NCBI GenBank assembly: GCA_038886535.1
Contig: JAVZXS010000001.1
Coordinates: 192,001 to 256,000 of the forward strand
Length of the DNA: 64,000 nucleotides
From: Candidatus Micrarchaeia archaeon
GTDB taxonomy: Archaea; Micrarchaeota; Micrarchaeia; CABMEP01
Reading direction: 5' to 3'
Both the position numbers and the translations under genes were made by a program. Positions 4,701 to 51,398 of this stretch are shown piece after piece (positions within the stretch are counted from its first letter, which is position 1; every line of letters starts with the position of its first letter). The notes under the pieces were generated by a model. It was not told the origin of the DNA. It saw only the letters and a program-made list of their open reading frames with translations, and made no database searches.

Positions 4701-7700
4701 AATAATACTTATTTTAATGTAACATTCAATTCTTCTTTCTACCCAACTAAGGTAAGTTTTACTCATAATGGCAGCATTAAAATAAATTCAGCTGATGCAG
4801 TTCCTTCTTCAGGATACTACAATGTTTCCAAATACCTTAACATCACAAACTCAACACCTGCATGGGTATACATTAATTTCACATACTCAAACGATACAAT
4901 AGGAGAAAATGAAACAAAACTCAAACTCTATAGATGGGATGGGTCTGCATGGAATGAAGTTCCAGGAAGCGGAGTAGATACTGATAATAAGATAGTTTAT
5001 GGAAATATTACACAATTCAGCATATTTGCTCCACTTGCAGTTGCAGATGCGATTCCCCCATCAATTCAATTGATATCTCCTGAAAATGATACATATACAA
5101 ACCAAAACAGTATGACCTTCATTTTCAATGCAACAGATGATCAGAGTTCTACATTAAACTGCAGCCTTTACATAAATAATGAAATTAACCAGACAAACGA
5201 AAGTTTTGTAAATGGTTCAGTTACTTCGTTCTCATTGACAAATATTGCAGATGGATATTATACATGGTACGTTAATTGTTCTGACGCTTCTGGCAATAGC
5301 AATGTCTCAGAAACAAGAACATTTACAATTGACACAATTCCTCCATCAGTCTCTATCACATCTCCATCTTCAAATTCATATCTTAATTCAAAGATAATAA
5401 CAATAACTGGTACTTCATCTGATCTAAATTACAATTTCACAAACATCTCAATCTGGCAGGGAAGCACACTAATTAATTCAACAATCACAACTAGTACTTC
5501 ATGGTCAGTCCAGCTTGCAGCGCAGGATGACGGAGTATATAGCATAAGTGCTGTTGCATATGATCTTGCAGGTAATGAAAATTCAAGCAATATAACAGAT
5601 ATAACAATAGATACTACCATACCTCAGGTTACAATTATTTCTCCATCGCAATCATCCCCGATTTATTTGAGGAGCAGCGTTCCAGTCCAACTTAAATTCA
5701 ATTACAATGAAACCAATCCTGCAAACTATACAGCTCTACTAATAAACAGTTCAGGACAAAGAGTATCAAACATATCAGAGAGTTTAGCTATTAGTGGTGA
5801 TGTGAATATTACGGCATCACTGTCAACTACTGGACTGCCTAATGGAAACTATTCAATCAATGTTACAATTTTTGATAAAGTAGGACACACTGTAACTGTC
5901 TCAGAGATCAATAATGTAATTATAGATAATGAAATACCTGGTGTAATAATTAATTCGCCTTCATCTGGCCATTATATTATAGGAGACACAATAGTTTTGA
6001 ATCTTACAATATTTGATGACAATCTCAATTACACTCAAATCACGATCTATAACGCATCAGAATCTATTCTAAATTACACCACTAATCAGTCTGGAACATT
6101 TACAATAAACTTCACTCTTCCAGATGATATATATACAATAAATGTAACCTCCTTTGATCTGTCTGGAAACAATGCAACCGCAACTGTCACTGGTGTAGAA
6201 TTAGATTCAACATCACCATTCTATCTAAATAACTGCTTGGACATAACAATGCCAGGAGAATACTATCTTGTAAATAATATTTATTCAACTAATGTCACTT
6301 GTATATTCATAGATGCAGATAACGTGACTGTTGATGGTCAGGGATATGAAGTACGCAACCTTGGAAACCCAATTATTCCGGGAATATTTGTACAGGATAG
6401 GAAAAACATTACGATTCAAAACATAATAATCTCTCATTATGATCCAGATATTCAAATGATTAATGTAACTGATGCAAAGATTTACAACGTAACACATAAT
6501 GGAGGACAAATTGAAATTATATATACTGATGCAGAAATTAAGAATTCAAGATTTGAGAATAGCAGTTCAGAAGGTATGGTTGCAAATCTTTCAAACATTA
6601 TCATAAATAATACAATTATCAAAAATAGCCAATCTGATACATTATATATATCATCTTCTAATGTAAGCATTTTAGGCTCACATATTCAGAACTCTAATGG
6701 AGTAAAAGGCATTTCCATTTCTGGACAAAACAGCATAATATCAATAGCATCATCAAGTATTATTCTGCAAACAGCAGACAATGCAGATGTAATTGATGTT
6801 GATGTTTCATCAACAGATAACCTATATCTATCAATTTCAGATTCAAACGTAAGCAACCAAAACAGTTTCATACATTTAAGAAATTCAGCTGGTTTTGAAT
6901 CCAAGAATATTTCAATTAATGTTTTCAGAAACAATATTTTCAACTTCTCAAAAATTATATCTTCAGATTCACCAGTTAATGGATCAGGAAAGATCTTATT
7001 AACCAGTGATATTCATGGAAACTACTGGGGAAGATCATCTTACCCATATGTGAATTTATCAGACTTCCAAAATGTTTCAGATGTCTCAGATGAGCTTCCT
7101 TATAAAGAAGCAGATGGATGGAATAAGGAAGCAAGATTCAGATTAAATTCTTCAAGCTATAATTTTGCATCAAAAGATGGAAAGCTGTCAATTTTAATGC
7201 CATACAACCCATCCTCACCAAATGACAATCTTGTCTTAAGCAGGCTAGAAAATGAAGTCTTCGTAATAACAGATCTTCCTTTAATGCATTTAGCTGCTGA
7301 AAACTCAATAGTAAATGCAAGATTGCACTATTTATTTGGAACTTACGAATCTGTGTATTTGCCAGTTGAAGAAAGAGAAGGCCTACTTTTAGTAACTCCG
7401 TTACCTATTGAAATCAAGGTAAATCTTTCAGATGATTTCAACACAAGTGAAGCAGATGATATTTCCTCAATTGAATTCGATGAAAATGGATTTATAAAAG
7501 ATCTCGGTGGAAAATTCGTTTTTGACTCAAATGAAGAATCTTTCAAGCTAAAGCTTAACATCATTAATGGTTCAATTGATTTCTTAATAGGAAAGAAGGA
7601 ATCAGATCTTATACTTTTTGACAATGTAAGCCCAACAGTCTCTCTACGTCAATCCGGTTCTATAGTTATTGCAGATTATTTAGATCCATTACAACAAGTG

Positions 7701-9905
7701 ATTCAGAGAAATGATGGAAGAGGCAATGCTTATAAGGAAGTGAATTCAGATCAAATTATTCCATTGTTCCTGCCAAATGGGGCAATGGTCAGTAATGCAA
7801 CGATGACACTTTCACCTCTCTCAGGAACTCCTTCATTCAACGTTTCAATCTACTTAAGAAACAACGTGACTTCATTATCTTCAGCTGAAAGATATTACTT
7901 TAATGAAATCTCTTCTCTCTCTTCACCTATTACGTTAGACTTAACTTCAAGTATGCAATCAGCTCTTGGAAATTGCAGCCAATTGCATAATGGTTCATAT
8001 TGTTTATTCTATATCAGTATCAATGGTTTGAATGATGGAGAATTCAATATTTCAGAATTCAATTTCAATTATTCATATTCATCTGGAATCAAGTTGCCAG
8101 ATGTAAATACCAGTGGTACAATTACATCTCTTGTGGAAATACCAAAGCATGAACCAGATGTTTTCTATCTAAGCGATGGAGGAACTGATGTCCTAGTTAT
8201 TTCATTGCCTTTCAAGTCATACATAAAATCAGCACAGATAACATTAAGTGGAGAAGAGTGGGAAGGCTCTTATCCATCTAATGTCAATATGTGGATAGGA
8301 AACGGATCAACATCACCCAGAACGCCATTTGTTACATATTCTGGTGAATTCAATACTTCCATACAAATAATTGCACCATTTGTTTCTGCTTTAAGGAACT
8401 ATACATCAAGCGCAGATGCTGACCATAAAGGTAATGTCCTAATACCATTAACACTTAATTCATCAACAAAGGGTAAGGTCAGGATCAGTTCTATAAGTGT
8501 TGATTATGATTTAAGAAATGCATACGATTTAAACTCTCCATCGTATATCTATGGATTCAATGATGGAAGTGAAGTTAAAACAGTAACATTTACAAACTCC
8601 TCACCATCTACAATCCTCTATATAGATATTCCAAAGTATTCCAGAGTTTCAAACATCTCAATCATATCAAGCCCTTCAGAGAACATTACATTCAATATTG
8701 ACTTCCTAAACGATGGAGTTATAGAGATTGAGAATAGTACAATGATAAGGCAACTCAATCTTACTCAATACCTACAAAATTGTTCTCCATACAAATTTAG
8801 AATTCCATTTGGAAGATTGTGCAAGGTTGCAATTAACATAACAGCCAATCTTGATGCGTATCCAAATGTTTATTCAGATTTCGAAGTTACAAGTTCATTT
8901 ATCTCAATGCCTTGGCGATATGCCGGATCTGATTCAGAAATAATAAGAGAAAGCGAAAAGAGGTTTGACTTTCTTACTATCCCAACTGGAGCTGCCAAGC
9001 GTGCAAGGTCTCTATCATTAGAGCACCGTTCAATCTACTCATTACAATCAGGTGATATTGTTATCGGCTATGGATTAGATATGGCTGGAAATAGAGGAAG
9101 TGGCAATTATACATTTATAGTTGCCGGCCCACCCACTCCACCAGCAATAACTCCACCATTAACAAAGATTCCATTATCTGGATGGATGAATTGTACTAAT
9201 TCATTAGCATATGTAATAACAGAACCAGGTGCTTCAGTTACTGTTTTGTTTAGGTCAAGCGGCATGTTTGTTACAGGAGGAACAGCGGATTCAAATGGAA
9301 GATTTGAGTTTATGCCTTTATTGAGTGGAGACTATATTATCCGTGTATCTAAATCAGGATTTGAAGATAATCAAATTACACTTACTGCAAATATTTGTAT
9401 TGTTGAGACGCAAATTTCTACAAAGAAGTCACTCATCTGTTCTCAAGATAAGTGCAGTATTAATCTTTATCTTGCAACAAACAAGATTTCAGACTTCCAG
9501 TTCAGGCTTACAGACTTTATACCGTCGCAAGTAATAAAAACAGTTAATTCGATAGTTGACAGATTCGGAAAGGTGTTCTATAGTTATAGCTATACAGATT
9601 CTTTAATTTCTATTCCATCCACTCAGAAGATAACGAGTACATTCTCAGTTATATTAGATACGGTTTTGACCGCTATTCCAAACTACATTGAAAATGAAAA
9701 TAAATTCATATATTCAATAACTAATACTGCTGCAGACGTTGAACTTGATGAGATTATAATACCATTGCCTGAAAATGCAAAAGGAAAGGAAATTGCATCA
9801 ATCGAGTACATTGATGCAGACGGTTCAAAGATAAATATAACGGATTACACAGTGGAATATGACAGGATTATTATCCACCAGTCAGTGATTATTAAGAAAC
9901 AGTAA
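1749..9905 (+). CDS. Giant secreted surface protein with parallel beta-helix (NosD-like) modules, a PGF-pre-PGF-like domain and Ig-like repeats
   Basis: N-terminal signal peptide. Four C..L...G.TY.L..N....TC..I.A.NITLDC-type module starts, Asn-rich helix repeats, LYRWDGSAW..VDT..KIVYGNITQFSIFA, D..PP.V.I.SP Ig repeats, many N-x-S/T sequons. Confidence 0.8.
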   Translation: MAGLNLRIFFIFFIVLFNINYGLSYLNNCSNLNINGETYILTTNVSSTTICFNISANNITLDCNGNTIYSYNNAVANASIITNAALTGIVIKNCNFIGNDSYILFFPYGNLNSKLINNSFKNCYYCSWIQSDNNISIINNSFYNSRNAIHFVGTSGFNISNNLFSNISSRSISAGGLDSNPSLVKVIENNFFLNTYRGIYNGMTLTHINSNEFYNCGEYCIYLASAQNNSIFNNNISNYSIYGLILDSSLGTNISTNIFNSTVGSAIVLRSSDVISVFNNTIYGPLILESSRNDTIFNNTILTAGIALHAYSPYYENENNQIFNNSIVSIDSYAIRLVSSKNNLIYNNILKGSVPVEVVDTLYTNYWNTTINCSGARNIVGGPCIGGNFYSNLNETGFSENINVCSPQSNKICGNSYTIQTNNIDYAPITNRLLAPSCSSQLNEPNTIYIMWSSQVTPGTCYTITANNVTLDCKGYTITYATGSNYAYGIYSGGYNNSVIKNCKLIQNTAPRNNAHGIWFAGSSNNKVENVSINIVGNQSNGIYLTYSWPNPSNYNFIKNTTITMSGVQGHGIDIYGSYNNFSNISIVTTGMYGNGINFDPSSDSNYNIFTNMSVKDTGSYSFAIQLRGNDNRFYNNLINSSSTSPVSVTSGSNSFNTTLTMGTNIIGGNYIAGNFWATPSGNGFSETCTDNDGNGICDATYTINSDNIDYLPLAVPPIQLTSCGTLDKTGKTYLLIQNITTSNDCFIINKSYITLDCQNNTITANRGVLIGFPGRESSSNITVKNCIINSAYDGIDLGAWSYNTNITILGNKIISQYANGIAFGTVAGSNINISNNIIYSPRWGIYIVSGSGYITNNTIVQVDCNYGGYPPCGGLILYGGSNFNILHNFINSTNAHGIVFADYLGTTADNNLVINNLIYTNYCGFRFQPYSKCGARNNIIANSTIIAIGTNSCGIYSDCPINTTWSNITINSEGTDFISLYSINNTYFNVTFNSSFYPTKVSFTHNGSIKINSADAVPSSGYYNVSKYLNITNSTPAWVYINFTYSNDTIGENETKLKLYRWDGSAWNEVPGSGVDTDNKIVYGNITQFSIFAPLAVADAIPPSIQLISPENDTYTNQNSMTFIFNATDDQSSTLNCSLYINNEINQTNESFVNGSVTSFSLTNIADGYYTWYVNCSDASGNSNVSETRTFTIDTIPPSVSITSPSSNSYLNSKIITITGTSSDLNYNFTNISIWQGSTLINSTITTSTSWSVQLAAQDDGVYSISAVAYDLAGNENSSNITDITIDTTIPQVTIISPSQSSPIYLRSSVPVQLKFNYNETNPANYTALLINSSGQRVSNISESLAISGDVNITASLSTTGLPNGNYSINVTIFDKVGHTVTVSEINNVIIDNEIPGVIINSPSSGHYIIGDTIVLNLTIFDDNLNYTQITIYNASESILNYTTNQSGTFTINFTLPDDIYTINVTSFDLSGNNATATVTGVELDSTSPFYLNNCLDITMPGEYYLVNNIYSTNVTCIFIDADNVTVDGQGYEVRNLGNPIIPGIFVQDRKNITIQNIIISHYDPDIQMINVTDAKIYNVTHNGGQIEIIYTDAEIKNSRFENSSSEGMVANLSNIIINNTIIKNSQSDTLYISSSNVSILGSHIQNSNGVKGISISGQNSIISIASSSIILQTADNADVIDVDVSSTDNLYLSISDSNVSNQNSFIHLRNSAGFESKNISINVFRNNIFNFSKIISSDSPVNGSGKILLTSDIHGNYWGRSSYPYVNLSDFQNVSDVSDELPYKEADGWNKEARFRLNSSSYNFASKDGKLSILMPYNPSSPNDNLVLSRLENEVFVITDLPLMHLAAENSIVNARLHYLFGTYESVYLPVEEREGLLLVTPLPIEIKVNLSDDFNTSEADDISSIEFDENGFIKDLGGKFVFDSNEESFKLKLNIINGSIDFLIGKKESDLILFDNVSPTVSLRQSGSIVIADYLDPLQQVIQRNDGRGNAYKEVNSDQIIPLFLPNGAMVSNATMTLSPLSGTPSFNVSIYLRNNVTSLSSAERYYFNEISSLSSPITLDLTSSMQSALGNCSQLHNGSYCLFYISINGLNDGEFNISEFNFNYSYSSGIKLPDVNTSGTITSLVEIPKHEPDVFYLSDGGTDVLVISLPFKSYIKSAQITLSGEEWEGSYPSNVNMWIGNGSTSPRTPFVTYSGEFNTSIQIIAPFVSALRNYTSSADADHKGNVLIPLTLNSSTKGKVRISSISVDYDLRNAYDLNSPSYIYGFNDGSEVKTVTFTNSSPSTILYIDIPKYSRVSNISIISSPSENITFNIDFLNDGVIEIENSTMIRQLNLTQYLQNCSPYKFRIPFGRLCKVAINITANLDAYPNVYSDFEVTSSFISMPWRYAGSDSEIIRESEKRFDFLTIPTGAAKRARSLSLEHRSIYSLQSGDIVIGYGLDMAGNRGSGNYTFIVAGPPTPPAITPPLTKIPLSGWMNCTNSLAYVITEPGASVTVLFRSSGMFVTGGTADSNGRFEFMPLLSGDYIIRVSKSGFEDNQITLTANICIVETQISTKKSLICSQDKCSINLYLATNKISDFQFRLTDFIPSQVIKTVNSIVDRFGKVFYSYSYTDSLISIPSTQKITSTFSVILDTVLTAIPNYIENENKFIYSITNTAADVELDEIIIPLPENAKGKEIASIEYIDADGSKINITDYTVEYDRIIIHQSVIIKKQ

Positions 9906-33254: not shown

Positions 33255-33337
33255 TTTTTTTTAATTATAATACCCGAAAAGTTTTTATATGTGTTTTGTT
33301 TCTTTATCAGTGTTATTTAAATTTTAGTGGTGGTAAG

Positions 33338-34174
33338 ATGGAAAACTTTAAAAAGGTAAAAGAGGAGAGATCTGAAAAAGAGATTGAATCATTTAAAGAC
33401 ATGAAAAAAGATGACATCTCTAAAATAGAGGATTATGATGAAAAAAGAGATCAAAAGCTGTGGGACTTCTATTACGCAATTGTAGACAATGATATAAAAA
33501 CGATAAAGGAATTTTTAAAGGAAGGTTTTAGTCCTAATGAAGAACTTCCATTTCCATCAGAAAATACAGTATTCTTTGAATCCCTTCCTTATGTGTCTTT
33601 GGAAGCACTTGAAATTCTGTACAATCATGGAGCACAAGTTGTAGAATATGATTCTGACGGAAACGTTTTTCATACAGCTTTTCAAGAATTGATAGCTTTA
33701 GACAGACCCGAAATAATTGAAAAATTGATTGATTTAGGTGCAGATTGGAAGGTTAAGAATTTGGGTTGCTCAATGTTATATTATGCATCTAGCTCCGCAA
33801 GTTCTCTAAAGGTATTTCTTGAGAAAACAGATCTTGATGTAAACGAAGAAGCAGAAGATGGCACTACCCCAATTTACATGGCAGCTGTTCATCATGATAG
33901 AGATGCAATTAAGATGCTATTAGAACACGGTGCTTTAATAAACAAACAAGATAAAAATGGATTCACTGCTTTGCACCATATCTTCAAATCTGATGATTTA
34001 AGAGATGAAAACAAAAGAATAGAAGCGATTAGGCTACTTCTTGAAAATGGCGCAGATCCAAATATAAAATCAAATGAAGGCAAAACACCTCTTGATTATG
34101 CTATCGAAAATAAGTTTCTAGAAGAGGCAGAGGTTTTGCGAAATAAAGGCGCAAAATTAGGGAAAGAAATCTAA
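33338..34174 (+). CDS. Ankyrin repeat protein
   Basis: GTTPIYMAA..LLEHGALIN, GFTALHH..LLENGADPN, GKTPLDYA. Confidence 0.88.
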   Translation: MENFKKVKEERSEKEIESFKDMKKDDISKIEDYDEKRDQKLWDFYYAIVDNDIKTIKEFLKEGFSPNEELPFPSENTVFFESLPYVSLEALEILYNHGAQVVEYDSDGNVFHTAFQELIALDRPEIIEKLIDLGADWKVKNLGCSMLYYASSSASSLKVFLEKTDLDVNEEAEDGTTPIYMAAVHHDRDAIKMLLEHGALINKQDKNGFTALHHIFKSDDLRDENKRIEAIRLLLENGADPNIKSNEGKTPLDYAIENKFLEEAEVLRNKGAKLGKEI

Positions 34175-38034: not shown

Positions 38035-38625
38035 TTATCTAATCGCCTTTAGAATTCTTTGTATTGCACTTATATTAGATAAGATCGCGAGTATTATAAT
38101 TAAATACTGAAAAATAGTCACATTAAACTGTGCTATAATTAAACTTAAAGTGTAAAGTCCTACTCTCTCAGCTCTTTCAAGTATTCCGCCTCTAAGTTCC
38201 TTTTTTAACTTCTTTTCTGCTGCAGCTGATTTTACATATGTAGTTATCATAGATCCAAATAAAAACAAAAAGATCCACGCTTGAAAATCAAATATGATAG
38301 GTTGCCACTGGATAAATACGAGTGGAAATATAAAGAGAAATTCATTATACCTGTCAACTACAGTATCTAAAAACGCACCGAATCTAGTAACTTTTTTAGT
38401 TTTCCTTGCAACTGCACCATCAATCAAATCTATTAAGCCAGAAACAGTTATTAAAAATGCACCAACTAAAAAATATCTATTGATTATGGAAAGAAATGCT
38501 GTAATTGCAACAGCTAGAGATGCAATAGTCCAAGTGTTTGGAGATATATTTAATTTTGCAAAATTTATTCCTATCCATTCTCTAATTTTTTTAAGTGTTT
38601 TATTTTCAGATTTTTCAAAAAGCAT
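38035..38625 (-). CDS. CDP-alcohol phosphatidyltransferase (archaetidylinositol phosphate synthase-like)
   Basis: DLIDGAVAR...GAFLDTVVDR signature; GILERAER. Confidence 0.88.
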   Translation of the reverse strand: MLFEKSENKTLKKIREWIGINFAKLNISPNTWTIASLAVAITAFLSIINRYFLVGAFLITVSGLIDLIDGAVARKTKKVTRFGAFLDTVVDRYNEFLFIFPLVFIQWQPIIFDFQAWIFLFLFGSMITTYVKSAAAEKKLKKELRGGILERAERVGLYTLSLIIAQFNVTIFQYLIIILAILSNISAIQRILKAIR

Positions 38626-38723
38626 TTTATCACTCATATAACTAATAACATTCATTAAGATAGTGTTCACTAGAAATGAAGTTAGAAAAGAAATATAAAA
38701 TGTTTCTTGTAAGAATTAATCTA

Positions 38724-43031: not shown

Positions 43032-43814
43032 ATGGAGAAAAAGAAAAGTGTCCCAGAATTAGATGAGCTAGTTGTTGTAACTGTTACAAAAGTTTTTCCT
43101 TATGGGGCATTTTGCAAAATGGAAGACTATAACATGGATGCATTTCTCCATGTTTCCGAAGTCTCATCTGGGTGGGTAAAGAATATAAGAAACTTCCTTA
43201 AAGAAGGCCAGAGACTTGTGGTTAGGGTACATAGAGTGGTTCCTGAAAAAAACATGGTGGATGTATCTCTAAAAAGAGTTACAGAAGCAGAACAGAAAAG
43301 AAAACTTGAGGAAGTTAAAAGAGACAAGAGAGCATTAAAGCTCCTTGAAGTTGCAAAAGAAAAGATAAAAAATGCAAATAAAACCACAAAACTTTCAATT
43401 GAAGAAGTTAAATCTATTCTTGAATCACATTTTGATGATTCGTTTTCTGCATTTGAAGAAGTTGTTAGAGAAGGAGAATCTGTTCTAAAAAAGACAAAAC
43501 TTCCACAAGAATGGGTCGAAGCAATCGTTGAAACCGCAAATGAGAATATAAAGAAGCAAGTTAGGTTAATAAAAGGGAAACTATTATTAAGATGTACAAA
43601 GGAAGGTGGAATAAACATAATAAAAGATTTGCTTTCAGTAGATCCGAATTCAGGTATTCATGTTCACTATTTAGGAGCACCCTACTATCAGATAACTGTT
43701 CAAGATGATGATTTCAAAAAATGCGAGAAGAAATTAAAACAGTTTGTTGATAATATTACTAAATTAGCTTCGAAAAATGAATGTGAAGTCAAATTTGAAA
43801 GAGAGGAAGAATAA
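43032..43814 (+). CDS. eif2a: Translation initiation factor 2 subunit alpha
   Basis: S1 domain PELDELVV..LHVSEVSSGWVKNIR; YLGAPYY. Confidence 0.95.
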   Translation: MEKKKSVPELDELVVVTVTKVFPYGAFCKMEDYNMDAFLHVSEVSSGWVKNIRNFLKEGQRLVVRVHRVVPEKNMVDVSLKRVTEAEQKRKLEEVKRDKRALKLLEVAKEKIKNANKTTKLSIEEVKSILESHFDDSFSAFEEVVREGESVLKKTKLPQEWVEAIVETANENIKKQVRLIKGKLLLRCTKEGGINIIKDLLSVDPNSGIHVHYLGAPYYQITVQDDDFKKCEKKLKQFVDNITKLASKNECEVKFEREEE

Positions 43815-43877
43815 TTTTTTATTGGTTCATTCTTTCCGTTTCACTCAAAGAAAAATATCTTTAACGTGGCGATATAA

Positions 43878-44075
43878 ATGAAGAAAATAAGGAAATGTCA
43901 ATTATGCAATAAATATACTCTTTCAAACATTCACTGTAATAAAGATACAGTTTCTCCACATCCAATTGCGAGTGGAGTTGAAAAAAATATTAGAGAAAGG
44001 TTAAAATCAAGAATTAAGAATTTAGAAGAAAAAGAAATGCATAAACCGATAGAAAGGGAAAAGATACCTTACTAA
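43878..44075 (+). CDS. nop10: H/ACA RNP protein Nop10
   Basis: IRKCQLCNKYTL..C..TVSPHP; syntenic after aIF2a. Confidence 0.8.
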   Translation: MKKIRKCQLCNKYTLSNIHCNKDTVSPHPIASGVEKNIRERLKSRIKNLEEKEMHKPIEREKIPY

Positions 44076-44137
44076 ATCATTCTTTAATTCCTAATTTGTA
44101 TTGATTAATATTGATTAATAAGATCATTGGTGGTTTT

Positions 44138-45007
44138 ATGGTCAAAAGATCAGAATCTAAGAAGCAAATTTCACAAAAAGAAGAACAAAAATCAAATCAT
44201 ATACTAGAAAAAGCGTTTCTTTCAACTAAGCATGGAATAAAAACTAACATAGAAATACACGAAAAAGTTTCTGGATTAGTAAATCCAATACTTGTTGAAG
44301 GACTTCCAGGAATAGGTTTTGTAGGTAAACTTGCGGCAGAACATTTGGTTTCAGAACTAAAGGCTAAGAAAATAGCAACACTATATTCATATCATTTTCC
44401 ACATCAAGTTTTAATCAACAAAGATGGAACCATAAAGATGCTTGTAAATGAGTTTTATCTTTACAAAGATCCAAAAAAGAAAAACGATCTAATTATTTTG
44501 ATTGGAGACGTTCAACCAGTTAGTTCAAGAGCCCAGTTTGAAGTAATGAATATTATATTAGAATACTTCTCTCTTTTAGGTGGCAAAAGAATAATAACTC
44601 TTGGTGGGTATGGAATAGGCAAACTTGTAGAAAAACCTAGAGTTTTTGGTGCAGTTATAAATAAAGAAGACGTTGAATTCTATAGGAAATTTGGTGTTAC
44701 TTTTGGGGAAGTTGAAGGTTCTATAATTGGAGCTGCAGGTGTTTTGCTTGGACTTGGAAAATTAAAGGGAATGGATGGTATATGTTTAATGGGAGAGACG
44801 CATGGAACATATATTGACCATAAATCTGCTCAGAGGGTAATCGAAGTTCTATCTGAAATAACCGGAATTAAAGTTGATGTTTCTAAGCTTACAGAAAAAG
44901 CGAAAGAAAGCGAAGGTATAATTAAGAAATTAGAGGAAGAATTAAATAGAGGACAAATGCCAATTGAACTTCCAAAGAAACCTGACGAGCTTTCATACAT
45001 TAGATAA
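44138..45007 (+). CDS. PAC2 family proteasome assembly chaperone
   Basis: EGLPGIGFVGKLAA, IITLGGY, IIGAAG, CLMGET. Confidence 0.88.
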   Translation: MVKRSESKKQISQKEEQKSNHILEKAFLSTKHGIKTNIEIHEKVSGLVNPILVEGLPGIGFVGKLAAEHLVSELKAKKIATLYSYHFPHQVLINKDGTIKMLVNEFYLYKDPKKKNDLIILIGDVQPVSSRAQFEVMNIILEYFSLLGGKRIITLGGYGIGKLVEKPRVFGAVINKEDVEFYRKFGVTFGEVEGSIIGAAGVLLGLGKLKGMDGICLMGETHGTYIDHKSAQRVIEVLSEITGIKVDVSKLTEKAKESEGIIKKLEEELNRGQMPIELPKKPDELSYIR

Positions 45008-45041
45008 TTTTCGTATACATTTTAGTTTTGAAGGTTTTTTG

Positions 45042-45764
45042 ATGAAAATTAATAAGTTTAAATGTACTAATTGTGGATACTGTTGTAAAAATATGCAAAA
45101 TCTTGCACTGTTCGAATGGGAAAAAGATTTACTTCTTTCTTTAGATCCTTCCATAAAGATAATTCCTGGAAATAAGATAAAATATAAAGATACAGAAATA
45201 ATTCTTTATTGGGGTTTACAAACTAAACATCAATCACTATCTAAAACAAAAGCTACAAAATCTATTCAGAAAGTATCTAAGAATGATAAAATAAAGAAAA
45301 GAAGTTTAGAGGAAATGTGCCCTTTTCTTTCTTTTGAATATGGCGTATCTAAATGCAATATATATGAGAATAGGCCACTTGTTTGTCGTGCTTTTCCTCT
45401 CTTTCATTTAGGATTTAAATTTATGGAAGGAATGATATCTGTCGATTGTCCAGAACATATAATTCCATTTAATCAAGAGCAGACAATTAGTAGAGAAAAA
45501 TTTTATTCTTTACTTTATGCAATATATGGCATTGCATTCTTAGATGCATTTCGACTCGAACTTGCAAGAGTTTGGATATCTGATATCGCTGAACTTGTTT
45601 TAAATCATTTAAAAGAGAACGAAATTGAAATTTCAGAAAGAGAAATCGGTCTTCTTGAACTTGCAATTAAAATCGGAGTTCTTACCGAAGACGAGATAGA
45701 GAAAGAGATAAGCTTCATTTATTCAGAAGAGATTCAGGATATGCTAAATCAATTGAATCTCTAA
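45042..45764 (+). CDS. YkgJ family cysteine-cluster protein
   Basis: CTNCGYCC...CPFL...CNIYENRPLVCRAFP. Confidence 0.85.
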   Translation: MKINKFKCTNCGYCCKNMQNLALFEWEKDLLLSLDPSIKIIPGNKIKYKDTEIILYWGLQTKHQSLSKTKATKSIQKVSKNDKIKKRSLEEMCPFLSFEYGVSKCNIYENRPLVCRAFPLFHLGFKFMEGMISVDCPEHIIPFNQEQTISREKFYSLLYAIYGIAFLDAFRLELARVWISDIAELVLNHLKENEIEISEREIGLLELAIKIGVLTEDEIEKEISFIYSEEIQDMLNQLNL

Positions 45765-45797
45765 TTATAAATTTAATTTATCCAATAGTTAATTTTG

Positions 45798-46085
45798 TTA
45801 TTTTTTTATTTTACTCATCAATTCTGTTAAATCTTTCCCACTTTTTCCTTTTGGGAATACATTTCCATTAGGTGTAAATACAGCTATCTGAAGTTCTTCT
45901 GCGAGCCTAACTGCTTCTTTCATGTCTATTATCCTATCAGTAAATAGAACTGGATATTCGCCATAAGGTTCTTTTATTATTTTTACTGTAAATATTATCC
46001 TTTGAAACATTCCTTTTCTGTGCACTCTGTATTCGCCTTTTCCATTTCTTAGAACTTCATCTAAAGTTGGTTCACCCTTTTCCAT
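45798..46085 (-). CDS. Hypothetical protein
   Basis: 95-codon ORF with a GTGAT SD-like motif. Confidence 0.6.
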   Translation of the reverse strand: MEKGEPTLDEVLRNGKGEYRVHRKGMFQRIIFTVKIIKEPYGEYPVLFTDRIIDMKEAVRLAEELQIAVFTPNGNVFPKGKSGKDLTELMSKIKK

Positions 46086-46127
46086 AAAAAATCACATTTT
46101 ATAATTATTTAAATGCAAAACATCTAT

Positions 46128-46805
46128 TTATCTTAAACATGCATTTACATTCGCTTCTATTTCTTCTTTACTCGGCATGATCGTTCCATATCTTTGATTT
46201 AGATATGTAATATTTTCAATAACAAAATTTCTCTTCTTACATATTATTTCTATCATTACTGGTTCTGAGTACGATATAGAAATGATAAGTTCGGGACAAA
46301 AAATACCATCACATTTTTGATAATATAATTCAGATCTTGTAACTTCTCCTTCCTTTATTGTTGGGAAAAATATCGTAAAAGGAATGAATAACGGATTAAT
46401 TTTAACACTTTTTTGTGTAATATCTTTTAATTTCCATCCAGAAAAGTTATTATTATAAAACTCAATAACTGAACTGTAATTAATATTCGATATCATATAT
46501 CCAATCGAATATATGTAAGAAGTACCTGTATAAATGCTTTCCATTTTTTCTTCGTGAATATCACTAATATTTATATCATATATACCGATTGTCGACCATT
46601 TTCTTTCTGCATTTTTTATTATAGGAACATCTTTAAGGTCACCTTTAATTTCATCGATTGCTGTCGCATTTTCTTCGTATGCATTTATTTTATCGGTTTG
46701 ATCTTTTTCCATTTTATCTAATAAATTTTTGCTATTATCAGAAATAGATTTTCCTATACAACCAACAAAAAGAACTGCCAGTATAATAAAAATCAATTTT
46801 TTCAT
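46128..46805 (-). CDS. Putative lipoprotein
   Basis: Lipobox-like signal MKKLIFIILAVLFVG-C. Confidence 0.6.
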   Translation of the reverse strand: MKKLIFIILAVLFVGCIGKSISDNSKNLLDKMEKDQTDKINAYEENATAIDEIKGDLKDVPIIKNAERKWSTIGIYDINISDIHEEKMESIYTGTSYIYSIGYMISNINYSSVIEFYNNNFSGWKLKDITQKSVKINPLFIPFTIFFPTIKEGEVTRSELYYQKCDGIFCPELIISISYSEPVMIEIICKKRNFVIENITYLNQRYGTIMPSKEEIEANVNACLR

Positions 46806-46956
46806 GACAAATATTTTTTTATAAAAATTTATATTTTTTTCTTAAAGGATCGCGTATAAAAAAATAACAGGACACAGTATAAATTTTATTTACATACTTT
46901 AGCTGCTTAATGGAAAAGTATATATATTTAAATCGTTCCTTAATTTTGTGATTTTT

Positions 46957-48195
46957 ATGAAGAACATATCTATTTTAGGTTCTACAGGAAGTATAGGTAC
47001 TCAGACATTAGACGTTATAAGAAATCATAAGAATAAATTTAGAGTAGTGGGTTTAGCTGCATATGGTACTGATAAAGATATAGATCTTATGGTTGAGCAG
47101 ATACATGAATTTAAACCTAAAATCGTATCAATGTACAGAACCGATGCAGCGATTAAGCTTAAAGAAAGATTGATGCATGATAATTTAGGTTATGGTCAAA
47201 AGATAGTGATCCTATCTGGTAATGAAGGTCTTATTTCAGTTTCTACTTTCCCTATGGTTGATACAGTTGTAACTGCAGTTGTTGGAAGTGTCGGCTTAAT
47301 TCCTACACTAGAGGCAATAAAGAAAAAGAAAAATATAGCTCTTGCAAACAAAGAAACATTAGTGTGTGCTGGAAGCATAGTTATGGAAAATGCAAAAAAG
47401 TACGGAGTAAAAATTATGCCAATAGATAGCGAACATTCAGCAATTTTTCAGTCTTTACAAGGTAATAAAAAGGAGCAAGTAAAGAGAATAATATTAACAT
47501 GTTCAGGAGGTCCATTTAGAGATGAAAAATTATGGCCCGCAGAAAAAATAAATGAAGCGACTCGAGAACAAGCACTTAAACATCCAACCTGGAATATGGG
47601 TGGAAAGATTACTATTGACAGTGCAACACTCATGAATAAAGGTTTAGAGGTTATAGAAGCTCATTGGCTTTATAATATTCCTTATGAACAAATTTCAGTT
47701 GTAATACACCCTCAGTCTATAATTCATTCAATGGTTGAATATGTTGATGGTTCTATAATGGCTCAGATTGGTGTTCACGATATGCGTATTCCGATTCAAT
47801 ATGCGTTATCCTATCCAGATAGATTACCAAGCGGTGATTATGCATTTTTAGATTTGATTAAAGTTTGTAATCTTACATTTTTTGAACCAGATACAGTCAG
47901 ATTTCCAGCTCTATTATATGCATACGAAGCAGGCAAGATCGGCGGAACAATGCCTACAGTTATGAATGCAGCAAATGAAGTAGCAGTTGTAGAATATTTC
48001 TTACAAGGAAAGATTAAATTCGGTGACATAATAAGAGTAGTAAGACATACGATGGATGTCCATAAGCATACAGTTGTTCAGAATCCAAACCTTCAAGACA
48101 TTCTTCAAGCAGATATATGGGCAAGAGAACACGTTCGTTCGGTTTTAAATGTAGTTATACAAGATAAAAGTTGGAAAAATATAAATTCATTCTAA
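46957..48195 (+). CDS. dxr: 1-deoxy-D-xylulose 5-phosphate reductoisomerase
   Basis: ILGSTGSIG, LANKE, PIDSEH, HPTWNMGGKITIDSATLMNKGLEVIEA, HPQSIIHSMVE, NAANE. Confidence 0.96.
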   Translation: MKNISILGSTGSIGTQTLDVIRNHKNKFRVVGLAAYGTDKDIDLMVEQIHEFKPKIVSMYRTDAAIKLKERLMHDNLGYGQKIVILSGNEGLISVSTFPMVDTVVTAVVGSVGLIPTLEAIKKKKNIALANKETLVCAGSIVMENAKKYGVKIMPIDSEHSAIFQSLQGNKKEQVKRIILTCSGGPFRDEKLWPAEKINEATREQALKHPTWNMGGKITIDSATLMNKGLEVIEAHWLYNIPYEQISVVIHPQSIIHSMVEYVDGSIMAQIGVHDMRIPIQYALSYPDRLPSGDYAFLDLIKVCNLTFFEPDTVRFPALLYAYEAGKIGGTMPTVMNAANEVAVVEYFLQGKIKFGDIIRVVRHTMDVHKHTVVQNPNLQDILQADIWAREHVRSVLNVVIQDKSWKNINSF

Positions 48196-48275
48196 AGTTA
48201 TTAAAAATATAGCAAAAATCGATATAATTGAAATAATTAGAAAAGAAATAAAATAAAAAAGATTTATGTTCAGAA

Positions 48276-48656
48276 TTATTGTTCTTTCTTCCATAATCCA
48301 TGGATGTTACAGTATTCTCTTGCATTTATTTTCTTTGCATTTATTTTGAATTCAGCCTCAGGAGTTTGACCTGGTTTTAGGTAATTTCTATATATTTTAT
48401 CATCTGCAAGCACTTCTATAAATTCAATGTAATGTTCGGGTTCCATTGGATGTGGAATAGAACCTATTTTAACTTTAAAGCCACCTCTAATCTTTTCGAT
48501 TACAGGTACATGTTTTTCATACCCTTGATCTTCTGTTTTTTCTTCTAGTTTTTCCATATTCTTATTGCAACAGACCAAAGTTCCAACTCCTGCATGAGCT
48601 ATTTCAACTATATTTCCACATACACTGCATTTATATATCTGATTAAGTTCTGTCAT
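48276..48656 (-). CDS. dfx: Desulfoferrodoxin (2Fe superoxide reductase)
   Basis: [30 protein letters not shown]. Confidence 0.95.
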
Positions 48657-48682
48657 ATTATCACCATTTTAAATATTTATTT

Positions 48683-49285
48683 TCAATATTCTTCACACTT
48701 CAATTGATAGAAAGCTTTAGGATGGTCACAAGATGGACATTTTTCAGGAGGGAATTTTCCAAAGTGTACATAACCACACTCTCTACATACCCACCAAACT
48801 TTATCGTTCTTATTAAAGAATGTACCTTTTTCAAGCTGTTCAAGTATCTTTTTATATCGTTCTTCATGGTGCTCTTCAGCTTTAGCGATGGCCCTTAATC
48901 TCTGTGCTATTTCTTTTAACCCTTCCTTTTCAGCTATGTCAGCGAATTCAGGATACATTTTTGCATATTCATAGTTTTCTCCTGCGATTGCAGCTTTAAG
49001 ATTATCGATAGTATTTCCGAATACGGTTGGAGCGGATGCCTCAACTTTTATTTCATTGTACTTCTCTATCTTTTCTCCTCTCTCAGCAGCTTTTTTCTTC
49101 AGTTCATTTATCAGTTTAAATAGCCAACTTGCATGTTCTCTCTCATTATCTGCAGTTATAAGGAATATTTCTGCAATTTGCTCATATCCTTCATTTCTTG
49201 CCACTTTCGCATAGAAAGTATATCTATTTCTTGCTTGACTTTCACCTATAAATGCCTTCGCTAAATTTTCAATCGTCTTCTCCAT
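48683..49285 (-). CDS. rbr: Rubrerythrin
   Basis: AFIGESQARNRY, ExxH pairs, C-terminal CRECG..CPSC. Confidence 0.95.
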   Translation of the reverse strand: MEKTIENLAKAFIGESQARNRYTFYAKVARNEGYEQIAEIFLITADNEREHASWLFKLINELKKKAAERGEKIEKYNEIKVEASAPTVFGNTIDNLKAAIAGENYEYAKMYPEFADIAEKEGLKEIAQRLRAIAKAEEHHEERYKKILEQLEKGTFFNKNDKVWWVCRECGYVHFGKFPPEKCPSCDHPKAFYQLKCEEY

Positions 49286-49431
49286 TCCAACACCTCCAAA
49301 ATTAGACATATATATTTGATTGAAAATGTTCATAAATATATCTATAACTTAATTTGTGATGTTCCTGATGTAAAAGATAAATTAAGCGAGGTATAGTAAT
49401 ATTTATAAATCTAATATAATATTATATATTT

Positions 49432-49546
49432 AACGATTTTTAGATCGTTTCCCGGCAAAGCGGTCTCTGCGATCGATTAACGCGAGAGACTCACATATCA
49501 TTTGATATGTGACAGGTATACTGCATCTTTGATGCACTACCGCGCT
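49432..49546 (+). promoter_or_regulatory. Structured 5' leader of the L3 operon (candidate r-leader)
   Basis: TTTATAAA at 49402-09, then a cluster of hairpins including the perfect TCACATATCA-TT-TGATATGTGA. Confidence 0.55.
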
Positions 49547-49611
49547 ATAGAATTGAAAGCATTTCATATATAGTTTAGTATTCATATTCATAATTCAAAA
49601 AGTGATGGTAA

Positions 49612-50592
49612 ATGGGAAAAGTTATTAAGCCAAGAGCAGGTTCTCTTGCATTTAGACCAAGAAAACGTTCGAAAGACATTACTCCAAGAATGCGAACTTG
49701 GAGAATCACCGATAAAGTGCAGTTACTGGGATATCCAGTCTATAAAGTAGGAATGAAGCAAGCAGGAATAATAGATGATTCTAGATCTCCAACTAAGGGA
49801 ATGGAATTAACAGTACCAGTTACAATTTTAGAAGCACCAAAGATAACTATTTATGGAGCAAGGCTTTATCAGAAAACTCTCACTGGAACAAAGTGTTTGG
49901 GTGATGCTCTTTCAATCAATACAAAAGTAGCATCAATGCTAGGTATGTCAAAGAAAGATAAGAAAAGAAAGGATATAAAATGGCTAGAAGAAAAAATATC
50001 TTCATTTAATGATGAAGATAAAAAAGATCTTTATATTTCAGTTCTTGCCGTAACTAATACAAAGGAAGCAGGAATTCCAAAGAAGACTGGAGATACAGTT
50101 GAAATAGCAATAGGTGGAAATGATATTAAATCTCAATTGGAGTATGTCAAATCCATACTTGGAAAGGATATAACTCCAAATGAAGTATTTGAAGAAGGAG
50201 AATATGTTGATGCAATAGCAGTAACAAGAGGACATGGCTGGCAGGGAGTTATTAGAAGATTCGGTGTTCACAAACAAAGACCTAAGAATACTGGAAGAGT
50301 AAGACACAGAGGTACATTAGGTCCATGGCATCCAGCATATGTTATGTATACTGTTCCACAAGCAGGTCAACATGGATTCCATAGAAGAACTCAATATAAT
50401 AATAGAATACTTTTGATTGGAGATGATCCATCTAAAGTTAATATTCCTGGTGGTTACCCACACTATGGAGAAGTCAAATCTTCGTTTATATGTGTTAAGG
50501 GTTCAGTTCCAGGAACTCAAAAGAGATTTGTATTCCTTAGAAAATCCATAAGGAATACTTCTGTGCAGAAACCACAGATTTTATGGTTCTGA
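49612..50592 (+). CDS. rpl3: 50S ribosomal protein L3
   Basis: PRAGSLAFRPRKR, GHGWQGVIRRFG, PQAGQHGFHRRT. Confidence 0.96.
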   Translation: MGKVIKPRAGSLAFRPRKRSKDITPRMRTWRITDKVQLLGYPVYKVGMKQAGIIDDSRSPTKGMELTVPVTILEAPKITIYGARLYQKTLTGTKCLGDALSINTKVASMLGMSKKDKKRKDIKWLEEKISSFNDEDKKDLYISVLAVTNTKEAGIPKKTGDTVEIAIGGNDIKSQLEYVKSILGKDITPNEVFEEGEYVDAIAVTRGHGWQGVIRRFGVHKQRPKNTGRVRHRGTLGPWHPAYVMYTVPQAGQHGFHRRTQYNNRILLIGDDPSKVNIPGGYPHYGEVKSSFICVKGSVPGTQKRFVFLRKSIRNTSVQKPQILWF

Positions 50593-50618
50593 AATTCAAA
50601 AGATAATAGGTTGATCAT

Positions 50619-51398
50619 ATGGTAAGTATTTCATTATATTCTCAAAATGGTTCACCAACTGGAAAAATAGAGCTTCCAGAGATATTTAGAACAGAGATAA
50701 GAGAAGATCTTATCAGAAGAGCAGTTTTATCTGAGGAATCAGAAAAACTACAACCAAAAGGAGCTTTTCCAAGAGCAGGTTTGCAAACAACTGCAAGGTA
50801 TATTGGTAGGAAGGATGCTTATCACTCACTCAAAAACAGAGGAATTGCAAAGCTTCCAAGAGAACTCTATCCAAAAGGAAGAATCGGAAGAGTAAGGGTA
50901 GTTCCATGGGCAGTAAAAGGTAGGAGAGCTCATCCTCCAAAAGTAGAAAAAGTTCTTATTGAGAGGATAAATAAAAGAGAAAAAAAGAAAGCACTTCATT
51001 CTGCAATTGCAGCTACCGCTAATAAGGAAATGGTTGGCAAGAAACACATATTACCAAAGATAGACATCCCTATTGTTCTTGATGATTCGTGCGAATCTTT
51101 ATCAAAAACAAAAGAAGTTGTTTCTTTATTTGAACATCTTGATCTTATGAAGGATATTGAAAGAGCTGAACAAAGAACTAAAAGAAATAATGGAAGAAAA
51201 GGTGGGGTAAAAACACCTAAGTCAATTCTTTTAATCGCTGCGAAGGATTCTAAGCTTCTTAAAGCAGCAAAGAACCTTCCAGGTGTTACAGTTACAACGA
51301 TAGATAATCTTAAAGTTTCAGATCTTGCACCTGGTGGAGTACCAGGCAGATTAACAGTTTGGACAAAATCTGCAATCGAAAATTTAAGTAAGGTTTAA
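50619..51398 (+). CDS. rpl4: 50S ribosomal protein L4
   Basis: AVKGRRAHPPK, LAPGGVPGRLTVWT. Confidence 0.96.
   Translation: MVSISLYSQNGSPTGKIELPEIFRTEIREDLIRRAVLSEESEKLQPKGAFPRAGLQTTARYIGRKDAYHSLKNRGIAKLPRELYPKGRIGRVRVVPWAVKGRRAHPPKVEKVLIERINKREKKKALHSAIAATANKEMVGKKHILPKIDIPIVLDDSCESLSKTKEVVSLFEHLDLMKDIERAEQRTKRNNGRKGGVKTPKSILLIAAKDSKLLKAAKNLPGVTVTTIDNLKVSDLAPGGVPGRLTVWTKSAIENLSKV

Follow-up and report, generated by a model that had tools for sequence, protein, structure and literature searches.

The dxr locus

We describe here dxr, a gene for 1-deoxy-D-xylulose 5-phosphate (DXP) reductoisomerase (DXR), which lies in a 64-kb stretch of the genome of a Candidatus Micrarchaeia archaeon (assembly GCA_038886535.1). 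This stretch, positions 192001-256000 of contig C1, was analysed at its full length and is called the window below. DXR is an enzyme of the methylerythritol phosphate (MEP) pathway to isoprenoids. The usual teaching places the mevalonate pathway in archaea and the MEP pathway in bacteria, as a divide at the level of the domains, and the gene discussed here stands on the archaeal side of it.

The source genome comprises 1.137 Mb in 40 contigs, with an estimated completeness of 88% and contamination of 0.25%. The gene content of the window is archaeal from end to end, as judged by Pfam matches to Nre, XPF, MCM, aIF2-beta, aIF1A, RIO1, NAC, PriL and PriS. On the 5' side of dxr are the genes for L44e, aIF2-alpha, Nop10 and PAC2; on its 3' side lies the operon that runs from L3-L4-L23-L2 to SecY, together with S4e, L32e, L19e, SUI1 and RNase P p29. 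The first-pass annotation, made from the letters of the window alone, had placed dxr between two archaeal informational clusters and had seen no other MEP gene in the window. Both statements hold: the Pfam matches identify such clusters on either flank, and a scan of 72 open reading frames (ORFs) of at least 70 residues, plus the 65-residue Nop10 ORF, returned no second MEP gene within the 64 kb. The gene and the region before it are as follows.

46957..48195, + strand: dxr, full-length DXR (ORF; three Pfam domains; TIGR00243; best solved relative 6mh4)
46806..46956, + strand: AT-rich intergenic region 5' of dxr, read from the sequence, with a possible promoter role

An intact reductoisomerase

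The dxr ORF ends with its stop codon at 48195 and offers two possible starts, a GTG at 46948 and an ATG at 46957. Translation from the ATG gives a product of 412 residues with the N-terminus MKNISILGSTGSIG. Residue 1 of this product aligns with residue 1 of the solved DXR 6mh4 (3.8e-108), which makes the ATG the likely start. A GTGAT at 46948-46952, 4 bases before this ATG, could serve as a Shine-Dalgarno element.

Three Pfam domains, each matched across its full profile, make up the protein: the NADPH-binding N-terminal domain PF02670 (residues 4-139, 3.1e-43), the central catalytic domain PF08436 (residues 153-239, 1.2e-39) and the C-terminal helical domain PF13288 (residues 271-391, 4.9e-39). 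The protein also passes the curated cut-offs of two DXR equivalog models, scoring 513.4 bits against 315.7 for TIGR00243 (EC 1.1.1.267) and 522.8 against 461 for NF009114. The motifs DSEH, HPTWNMG and KGLEVIEA are all found in the translation. In an alignment with 67 bacterial DXRs, 55 of the 56 near-invariant columns (those at least 97% conserved among the 67) are kept. They include G8, G11, S12 and G14; D157, S158, E159 and H160; H209, W212 and M214; N227, K228 and E231; and H257, residues assigned in the E. coli enzyme to nucleotide, metal and substrate binding and to the flexible loop. The sole altered column carries a conservative change of F to Y at residue 239. The full-length enzyme with the motifs quoted in the first-pass annotation is thus borne out by the Pfam and equivalog models and by these columns, and so is the host-like base composition noted there, with a guanine-plus-cytosine (GC) fraction of 0.344 in dxr against 0.33 in the genome.

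When dxr is compared with that of two congeners, the ratio of nonsynonymous to synonymous substitution rates (dN/dS) comes to 0.065 and 0.059; purifying selection acts on the gene, which is intact. We would expect its product to be an expressed and active enzyme.

Compared with the bacterial enzymes (IspC; 6mh4, 1q0q and 1k5h), the window DXR has the same three-domain architecture and shares the motif blocks GSTGSIG, LANKE, DSEH, HPTWNMG and NKGLEVIEA; its matches to the sequences of 1q0q and 1k5h have E-values of about 2e-90. It differs from them in having an archaeon as its host and in a C-terminus that extends about 15-20 residues past the profile end; of the 412 residues, the TIGR00243 match covers those up to about 399.

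A complete MEP gene set, with mevalonate markers not found

The other MEP genes were searched for in the whole genome, and the called ORFs were confirmed against the curated cut-offs of NCBIfam. Five genes, covering six activities, were found, together with a type-2 isomerase of isopentenyl diphosphate (IPP):

C1:268849-270720, about 13 kb past the window end: dxs (721.9 bits against a cut-off of 465.95)
C2:115348-116538: ispDF fusion, one 413-residue protein (ispD 182.3 against 181.3; ispF 118.9 against 116.45)
Contig C4: ispE (159.9 against 138.7)
Contig C2: ispG (442.9 against 345)
Contig C2: ispH (295.2 against 187.85)
Same genome: IDI2, type-2 IPP isomerase (331.2 against 281.3)

With dxr these genes make a complete MEP set, in which dxs, ispD, ispE, ispF, ispG and ispH all lie above their cut-offs, ispD and ispF narrowly so. 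They are scattered over three contigs among archaeal genes, with dxs beside NMD3, ispDF beside PCNA and dxr beside the ribosomal operon.

The search for the mevalonate route gave the opposite picture. The source genome has no match to HMGR or to the archaeal HMGS (TIGR00748). For MVK (TIGR00549) it has only a 24.1-bit match on ispE itself and one other match of 14.5 bits, and the one protein matched by the IPK model (NF040647, cut-off 120) is the archaeal UMP kinase, with 36.6 bits. HMGR was likewise not found in the 8 other genomes of the family. The canonical archaeal mevalonate pathway (HMGS, HMGR, MVK, IPK) delivers the same end products, IPP and dimethylallyl diphosphate (DMAPP), to the same lipid machinery; the MEP route is not homologous to it. 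No marker of the mevalonate pathway was found in the source genome or, for HMGR, in the family.

In our view, dxr very probably encodes a functional DXR within a complete, horizontally acquired MEP pathway that would have replaced the ancestral mevalonate pathway and would leave this organism with no other recognisable source of IPP and DMAPP. DXR would act as the second enzyme of the pathway, reducing and rearranging DXP to MEP with NADPH and a divalent metal. Through dxs, dxr, the fused ispDF, ispE, ispG and ispH the pathway would lead to IPP and DMAPP, with IDI2 joining at this point. The suggestion in the first-pass annotation that the lineage uses the MEP pathway for its isoprenoid and lipid precursors is supported by these searches, since the other MEP genes are present and the mevalonate markers were not found.

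Distribution across the class

In a first set of 41 genomes, DXR was found in 9: the source genome, 6 of the 8 other genomes of its family, and 2 genomes from other families of the class. HMGR was found in 27 of the 41 and in none of the 9 from the family. A larger sample of the class comprised 201 genomes, the source genome among them; this sample is smaller than the whole class, and the related genomes in it are not independent of each other. DXR occurs in 25 of the 201, which belong to 13 of the 110 genera and at least eight families. IspG lies above its cut-off in 27, namely the 25 with DXR and two incomplete congeners. Three more IspG matches, with E-values of about 5e-4, come from HMGR-positive genomes; they fall below the cut-off and were treated as noise. 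HMGR is present in 156 genomes and 18 have neither the MEP markers nor HMGR. No genome of the 201 has both, as seen by comparing the genome lists by eye, with consistent per-family tallies. The MEP and mevalonate routes are mutually exclusive in every genome examined.

The arrangement of the genes varies across the class. In several other families dxr adjoins ispG, and in the genus of the window organism the two are on different contigs.

Phylogeny of DXR

The nearest named relative of the window DXR, at 76% identity, is encoded in another genome recorded as Candidatus Micrarchaeia archaeon (locus L023). The next nearest, at 52-56% identity, come from metagenome-assembled genomes (MAGs) labelled Nanoarchaeota or Woesearchaeota and from some with doubtful archaeal labels, and the best bacterial DXRs reach up to 55-56%. 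The L023 DXR sits inside the clade of the window's genus and its neighbouring genes are 70-94% identical to those of the window; the window organism thus appears to be congeneric with the MAG of L023.

Three trees recover a well-supported DXR clade made of the window's genus and a second genus of the family (Shimodaira-Hasegawa-like approximate likelihood ratio test, SH-aLRT, 94 to 98), which fits vertical descent within the family. The placement of this clade depends on the sampling. The first tree had 84 rows, after removal of a locus cut by a contig end (L029), four redundant Megasphaera rows and L022, which is the second piece of a match in genome G007. Here the family clade fell inside a 20-row, mostly DPANN group of Woesearchaeota- and Nanoarchaeota-labelled DXRs with two bacterial-labelled rows (SH-aLRT 96). 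For the second tree, of 77 rows, 16 DXRs of the class were added and 23 further rows were removed; the rows dropped from it number 28 in all, those named above among them, and the rest were mostly redundant bacterial ones, with L017 also left out as a duplicate of L023. In this tree the 20-row grouping dissolves into an unresolved backbone. The other families of the class fall elsewhere; the clade of families f5 and f10, for example, lies among Bacillota rows with weak support. Firmicutes, FCB (Fibrobacteres-Chlorobi-Bacteroidetes) bacteria and another DPANN lineage were each considered as the donor, and we claim none of them, the DPANN grouping having been lost in the 77-row tree.

The 45 hand-picked rows of a third tree, from which the five longest branches (L020, L021, L117, L121 and L122) were left out, served for a shortcut version of the approximately unbiased (AU) test under LG+F+G4. 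By path in this tree, the DXRs nearest to the window's outside its family were again those labelled Woesearchaeota or Nanoarchaeota. A single clade of 17 archaeal DXRs received a p-AU of 0.028, in a comparison of a constrained tree built by fast search with a free tree taken from an interrupted longer search, and under a model prone to false rejection. Because the search effort was unequal and the model simple, this hints no more than weakly at multiple acquisitions of DXR among archaea.

One genus of the same family carries a very divergent DXR (L021/L022, G007:C1:89961-91208), which is 33% identical to that of the window. Its match is in two pieces of 194.7 and 42.2 bits, below the cut-off; it forms the longest branch in the trees, and its immediate neighbour is ispG. 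Either a separate acquisition or rapid evolution of the copy may account for it.

Conserved gene order around dxr

The genes next to dxr were compared with the DXR loci of relatives by tblastn of the window's neighbour proteins. The loci were those of four other genomes in the window's genus (L014-L017), one from the second genus of the family (L018) and L023. The features concerned are listed here.

43032..45007, + strand: aIF2-alpha, Nop10 and PAC2, archaeal informational genes on the upstream side (Pfam; syntenic in L023)
45798..46085, - strand: 95-residue protein, the conserved upstream neighbour of dxr (no Pfam family)
46128..46805, - strand: 225-residue protein with a lipoprotein-like N-terminus, its gene a variable insert between the 95-residue gene and dxr (ORF; no Pfam match)
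48276-48656, - strand: desulfoferrodoxin, on the downstream flank of dxr (Pfam PF01880/PF06397)
48683-49333, - strand: rubrerythrin, on the downstream flank of dxr (Pfam PF02915/PF21349)
49612..51398, + strand: L3 and L4, first genes of the archaeal ribosomal-protein operon (Pfam PF00297, PF00573)

The order of 95-residue gene, dxr, desulfoferrodoxin and rubrerythrin is kept in L014, L015, L016, L017 and L023. In L023 the synteny extends to aIF2-alpha, Nop10 and PAC2 on one side and, at 86-89% identity, to L3 and L4 on the other. Synteny is partial in L018, from the second genus: this locus keeps the 95-residue gene, dxr and L3, which there follows dxr, with desulfoferrodoxin and rubrerythrin unmatched.

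Contigs assembled by Logan from public hot-spring metagenome runs were compared with positions 45700-49700 of the window. A 26.7-kb contig from run X1, which is possibly the source sample, spans this whole interval with zero differences. A contig from run X3, of a different study, is continuous from the 95-residue gene to dxr; it joins 46228 to 46890 and lacks the 225-residue gene.

The 95-residue gene is oriented divergently to dxr and shows 60-99% identity at every family locus compared (L014-L018 and L023). In the 225-residue protein a cysteine follows an N-terminus that resembles a signal peptide. Its gene is present in L015 and leaves a 36-residue remnant match in L014, and no match was found at the L016, L017, L018 and L023 loci. 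Desulfoferrodoxin and rubrerythrin, encoded as a pair between dxr and the operon that starts with L3, suggest that the organism lives as an oxygen-sensitive one.

Downstream lipid enzymes

The source genome holds a set of genes that could use the products of the MEP pathway. GGGPS (TIGR01769, 211.2 bits against 161.55) and the CDP-archaeol synthase CarS (NF003114, 194 against 148) are above their cut-offs, as is the cis-prenyltransferase UPPS (228.8 against 109.55). Pfam further identifies a trans-polyprenyl synthase (polyprenyl_synt) and a UbiA prenyltransferase, the best models of the latter being DGGGP-synthase-like and below cut-off. One more candidate lies in the window itself:

38035..38670, - strand: CDP-alcohol phosphatidyltransferase, archaetidylinositol-phosphate-synthase-like (PF01066, 1.9e-17)

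This confirms the CDP-alcohol transferase that had been named at 38035 in the first-pass annotation; the protein is a likely downstream user of CDP-archaeol. In the proposed scheme IPP and DMAPP would pass through the trans-polyprenyl synthase to GGGPS, the UbiA-type prenyltransferase, CarS and the archaetidylinositol-phosphate-synthase-like protein, and some would go to the cis-prenyltransferase for carrier lipids. From this gene content we infer that the product would flow into membrane lipids. The link from the MEP pathway to ether lipids is a reasonable inference with one unexplained gap, the dehydrogenase for sn-glycerol-1-phosphate (G1P) discussed below.

Alternative explanations

Two simple alternatives were considered. 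One, raised as a caveat in the first-pass annotation, is that dxr is an artefact of assembly or binning, with a piece of bacterial DNA fused to a contig of the archaeon. The genome is indeed a draft of 40 contigs and the gene family is otherwise bacterial, and there is no positive evidence beyond that. Against it stand the gene order conserved in L014-L017 and L023 and partly in L018, the unchanged locus on the X1 contig (though X1 may be the source sample) and the X3 contig from another study that bridges the 95-residue gene to dxr, the host-like GC of dxr, and the placement of dxs on the same contig, with dxs and ispDF beside NMD3 and PCNA. The synteny in five other assemblies of the family and the Logan contigs rule the artefact out, and we give it practically no weight. 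The other, also raised at that stage, is a solitary DXR retained for a function outside the MEP pathway. It could draw on a 64-kb window with no other MEP gene in it, but the remaining genes, dxs, ispDF, ispE, ispG and ispH, are found elsewhere in the same genome above their cut-offs, and IspG accompanies DXR in 25 of the 25 DXR-positive genomes of the class sample. A repurposed solitary enzyme is refuted by these genes and is, to us, hardly conceivable.

The preferred reading, a functional DXR in a complete MEP pathway that took the place of the mevalonate pathway, has its own weak points, and the following observations count against it. The window DXR falls below the cut-off of a third DXR equivalog, NF003938 (434.1 against 515). 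The absence of mevalonate genes from one genome is not proof, because this genome is 88% complete. No RNA run is among the public runs listed as containing the stretch. On the lipid side, the polyprenyl synthase and UbiA proteins miss all NCBIfam equivalog cut-offs (best 232.9 against 468 and 235.6 against 269), and the best model for the protein at 38035-38670, NF040950, scores 144.5 bits, under its cut-off of 180. Further, no match to the G1P dehydrogenase (PF13685) turned up in the 9 genomes of the family, in a search whose control was positive in 13 of 14 reference genomes. Because this enzyme was not found in the family, the glycerol-phosphate backbone of the ether lipids is without a recognised source. 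These last points fit a reading that differs from the preferred one solely in the destination of the product: the MEP pathway would be intact and active, with its product going mainly to non-membrane isoprenoids such as the polyprenyl-phosphate sugar carriers made by the cis-prenyltransferase, and the bulk lipids or their backbone would come from a host. Host-derived membrane lipids have been proposed for many DPANN. The small genome, at 1.14 Mb, and the clear presence of UPPS, next to UbiA and polyprenyl synthase proteins below their equivalog cut-offs, agree with this reading, as does the argument, in the accessible part of PMC8421398, that Woesearchaeota with the MEP pathway may produce no membrane lipids. 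Yet the genome has GGGPS and CarS with scores that pass their cut-offs, and an archaetidylinositol-phosphate-synthase-like gene besides; there would be little sense in retaining these genes without ether-lipid assembly, and GGGPS is reported, in the part of PMC12892359 at hand, in all major Micrarchaeota lineages. We consider a product destined mainly for carriers an unlikely outcome that still deserves some attention. Ether lipids might also be built from MEP isoprenoids without the G1P dehydrogenase, by way of an unrecognised source of the backbone or with a backbone that differs in chirality, along with several separate MEP replacements within the class; this combined proposal we regard as speculative, and put it forward tentatively.

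Relation to other MEP-bearing archaea

Castelle and Banfield are said, in later citations, to have reported the MEP pathway in Woesearchaeota as early as 2018. A good account of the subject has since accumulated, and what is said of it here reflects the available portions of the papers. Castelle et al. (2021; PMC8204110) found the MEP pathway, with co-located genes, to be widespread among 52 Woesearchaeota genomes that form a monophyletic clade. Huang et al. (2021; PMC8421398) found it to be the only route to isoprenoid precursors in Woesearchaeota subgroups F and J, with a fused ispD/ispF, with dxr and ispG nearest to Firmicutes, and with GGGPS and DGGGPS missing in subgroup J. In PMC6107057, MEP enzymes in a few DPANN were attributed to transfer from FCB bacteria. 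Closest to the present case, a study in Natl Sci Rev (2025; PMC12892359) reported a complete MEP pathway, acquired by transfer, in the Norongarragalinales, Zaosheniarchaeales and Micrarchaeales of the Micrarchaeota. Its supplementary tables give dxr in a fraction of 0.875 and HMGCR in 0.0625 of the Zaosheniarchaeales genomes, the dxr-positive columns in its per-genome rows are HMGCR-negative, and its Dataset S7 lists the L023 isolate with dxr = 1 and HMGCR = 0.

The genome studied here agrees with the published DPANN cases in the archaeal context of its genes, the fused ispDF, the HMGR that was not found and a DXR whose closest named counterparts are those of other DPANN. It is like the Woesearchaeota in having the MEP pathway as the only recognised IPP route, in the ispDF fusion, which is described there for subgroup J, and in being a small anaerobic genome, as far as those reports describe them. 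It belongs to a different phylum, however, and unlike subgroup J, as reported, it has GGGPS above the cut-off as well as a UbiA prenyltransferase. Similarly, the co-located MEP genes described by Castelle et al. contrast with the dispersal of the genes over three contigs here. With the Micrarchaeota of PMC12892359 the lineage shares a DPANN affiliation and a complete, bacterial and, on the reading preferred here, transferred MEP pathway, and the per-order fractions given there match the pattern of exclusion. In the portion available, that paper says that these orders "also" have the MEP pathway, and the exclusion at the level of genomes (0 of 201) is made explicit here.

It is worth pointing out that the statement in the first-pass annotation that MEP genes have been reported only rarely in archaea understates this literature, with its 52-genome Woesearchaeota clade and three Micrarchaeota orders. 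Both the swap of pathways and the version of it in this lineage are already known from the sources as available. Because the MEP pathway in Woesearchaeota and Micrarchaeota is already published, the locus is not a discovery but a well-documented instance.

Other features of the window

Three further ORFs of the window, all on the + strand, are recorded here. A giant ORF of 2718 residues at 1749-9905 has NosD, right-handed beta-helix, Big_13, Big_7 and CarboxypepD_reg domains and probably encodes a large surface protein of a kind common in DPANN. An ankyrin-repeat protein of 292 residues is encoded at 33296-34174, between an ORF with an acylphosphatase domain and the gene for CysRS; ankyrin-repeat proteins are unusual in DPANN, if not unprecedented. 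Finally, a CxxCxxCC-domain ORF is listed from a TTG at 44964-45764, where 44 of its bases run over the end of PAC2, and its true start is probably a downstream ATG (MKINKFKC...).

Implications

The locus is a clear-cut case of an archaeon that would draw its isoprenoid precursors from a bacterial route, among them any that enter the membrane. As such it bears on how firm the divide between the domains is, and on the ease with which a central pathway can be swapped by gene transfer in small-genome DPANN. To the published picture it adds the finding that none of the 201 genomes carries both routes, and a G1P dehydrogenase that is consistently not found despite the presence of GGGPS and CarS. It also adds MEP genes that are dispersed and ameliorated in this genus, next to a GGGPS and a CarS that set the genome apart from Woesearchaeota subgroup J as described in the accessible report. 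An archaeon that depends on DXR should be sensitive to fosmidomycin, which may make this compound a possible selective tool in enrichment cultures.

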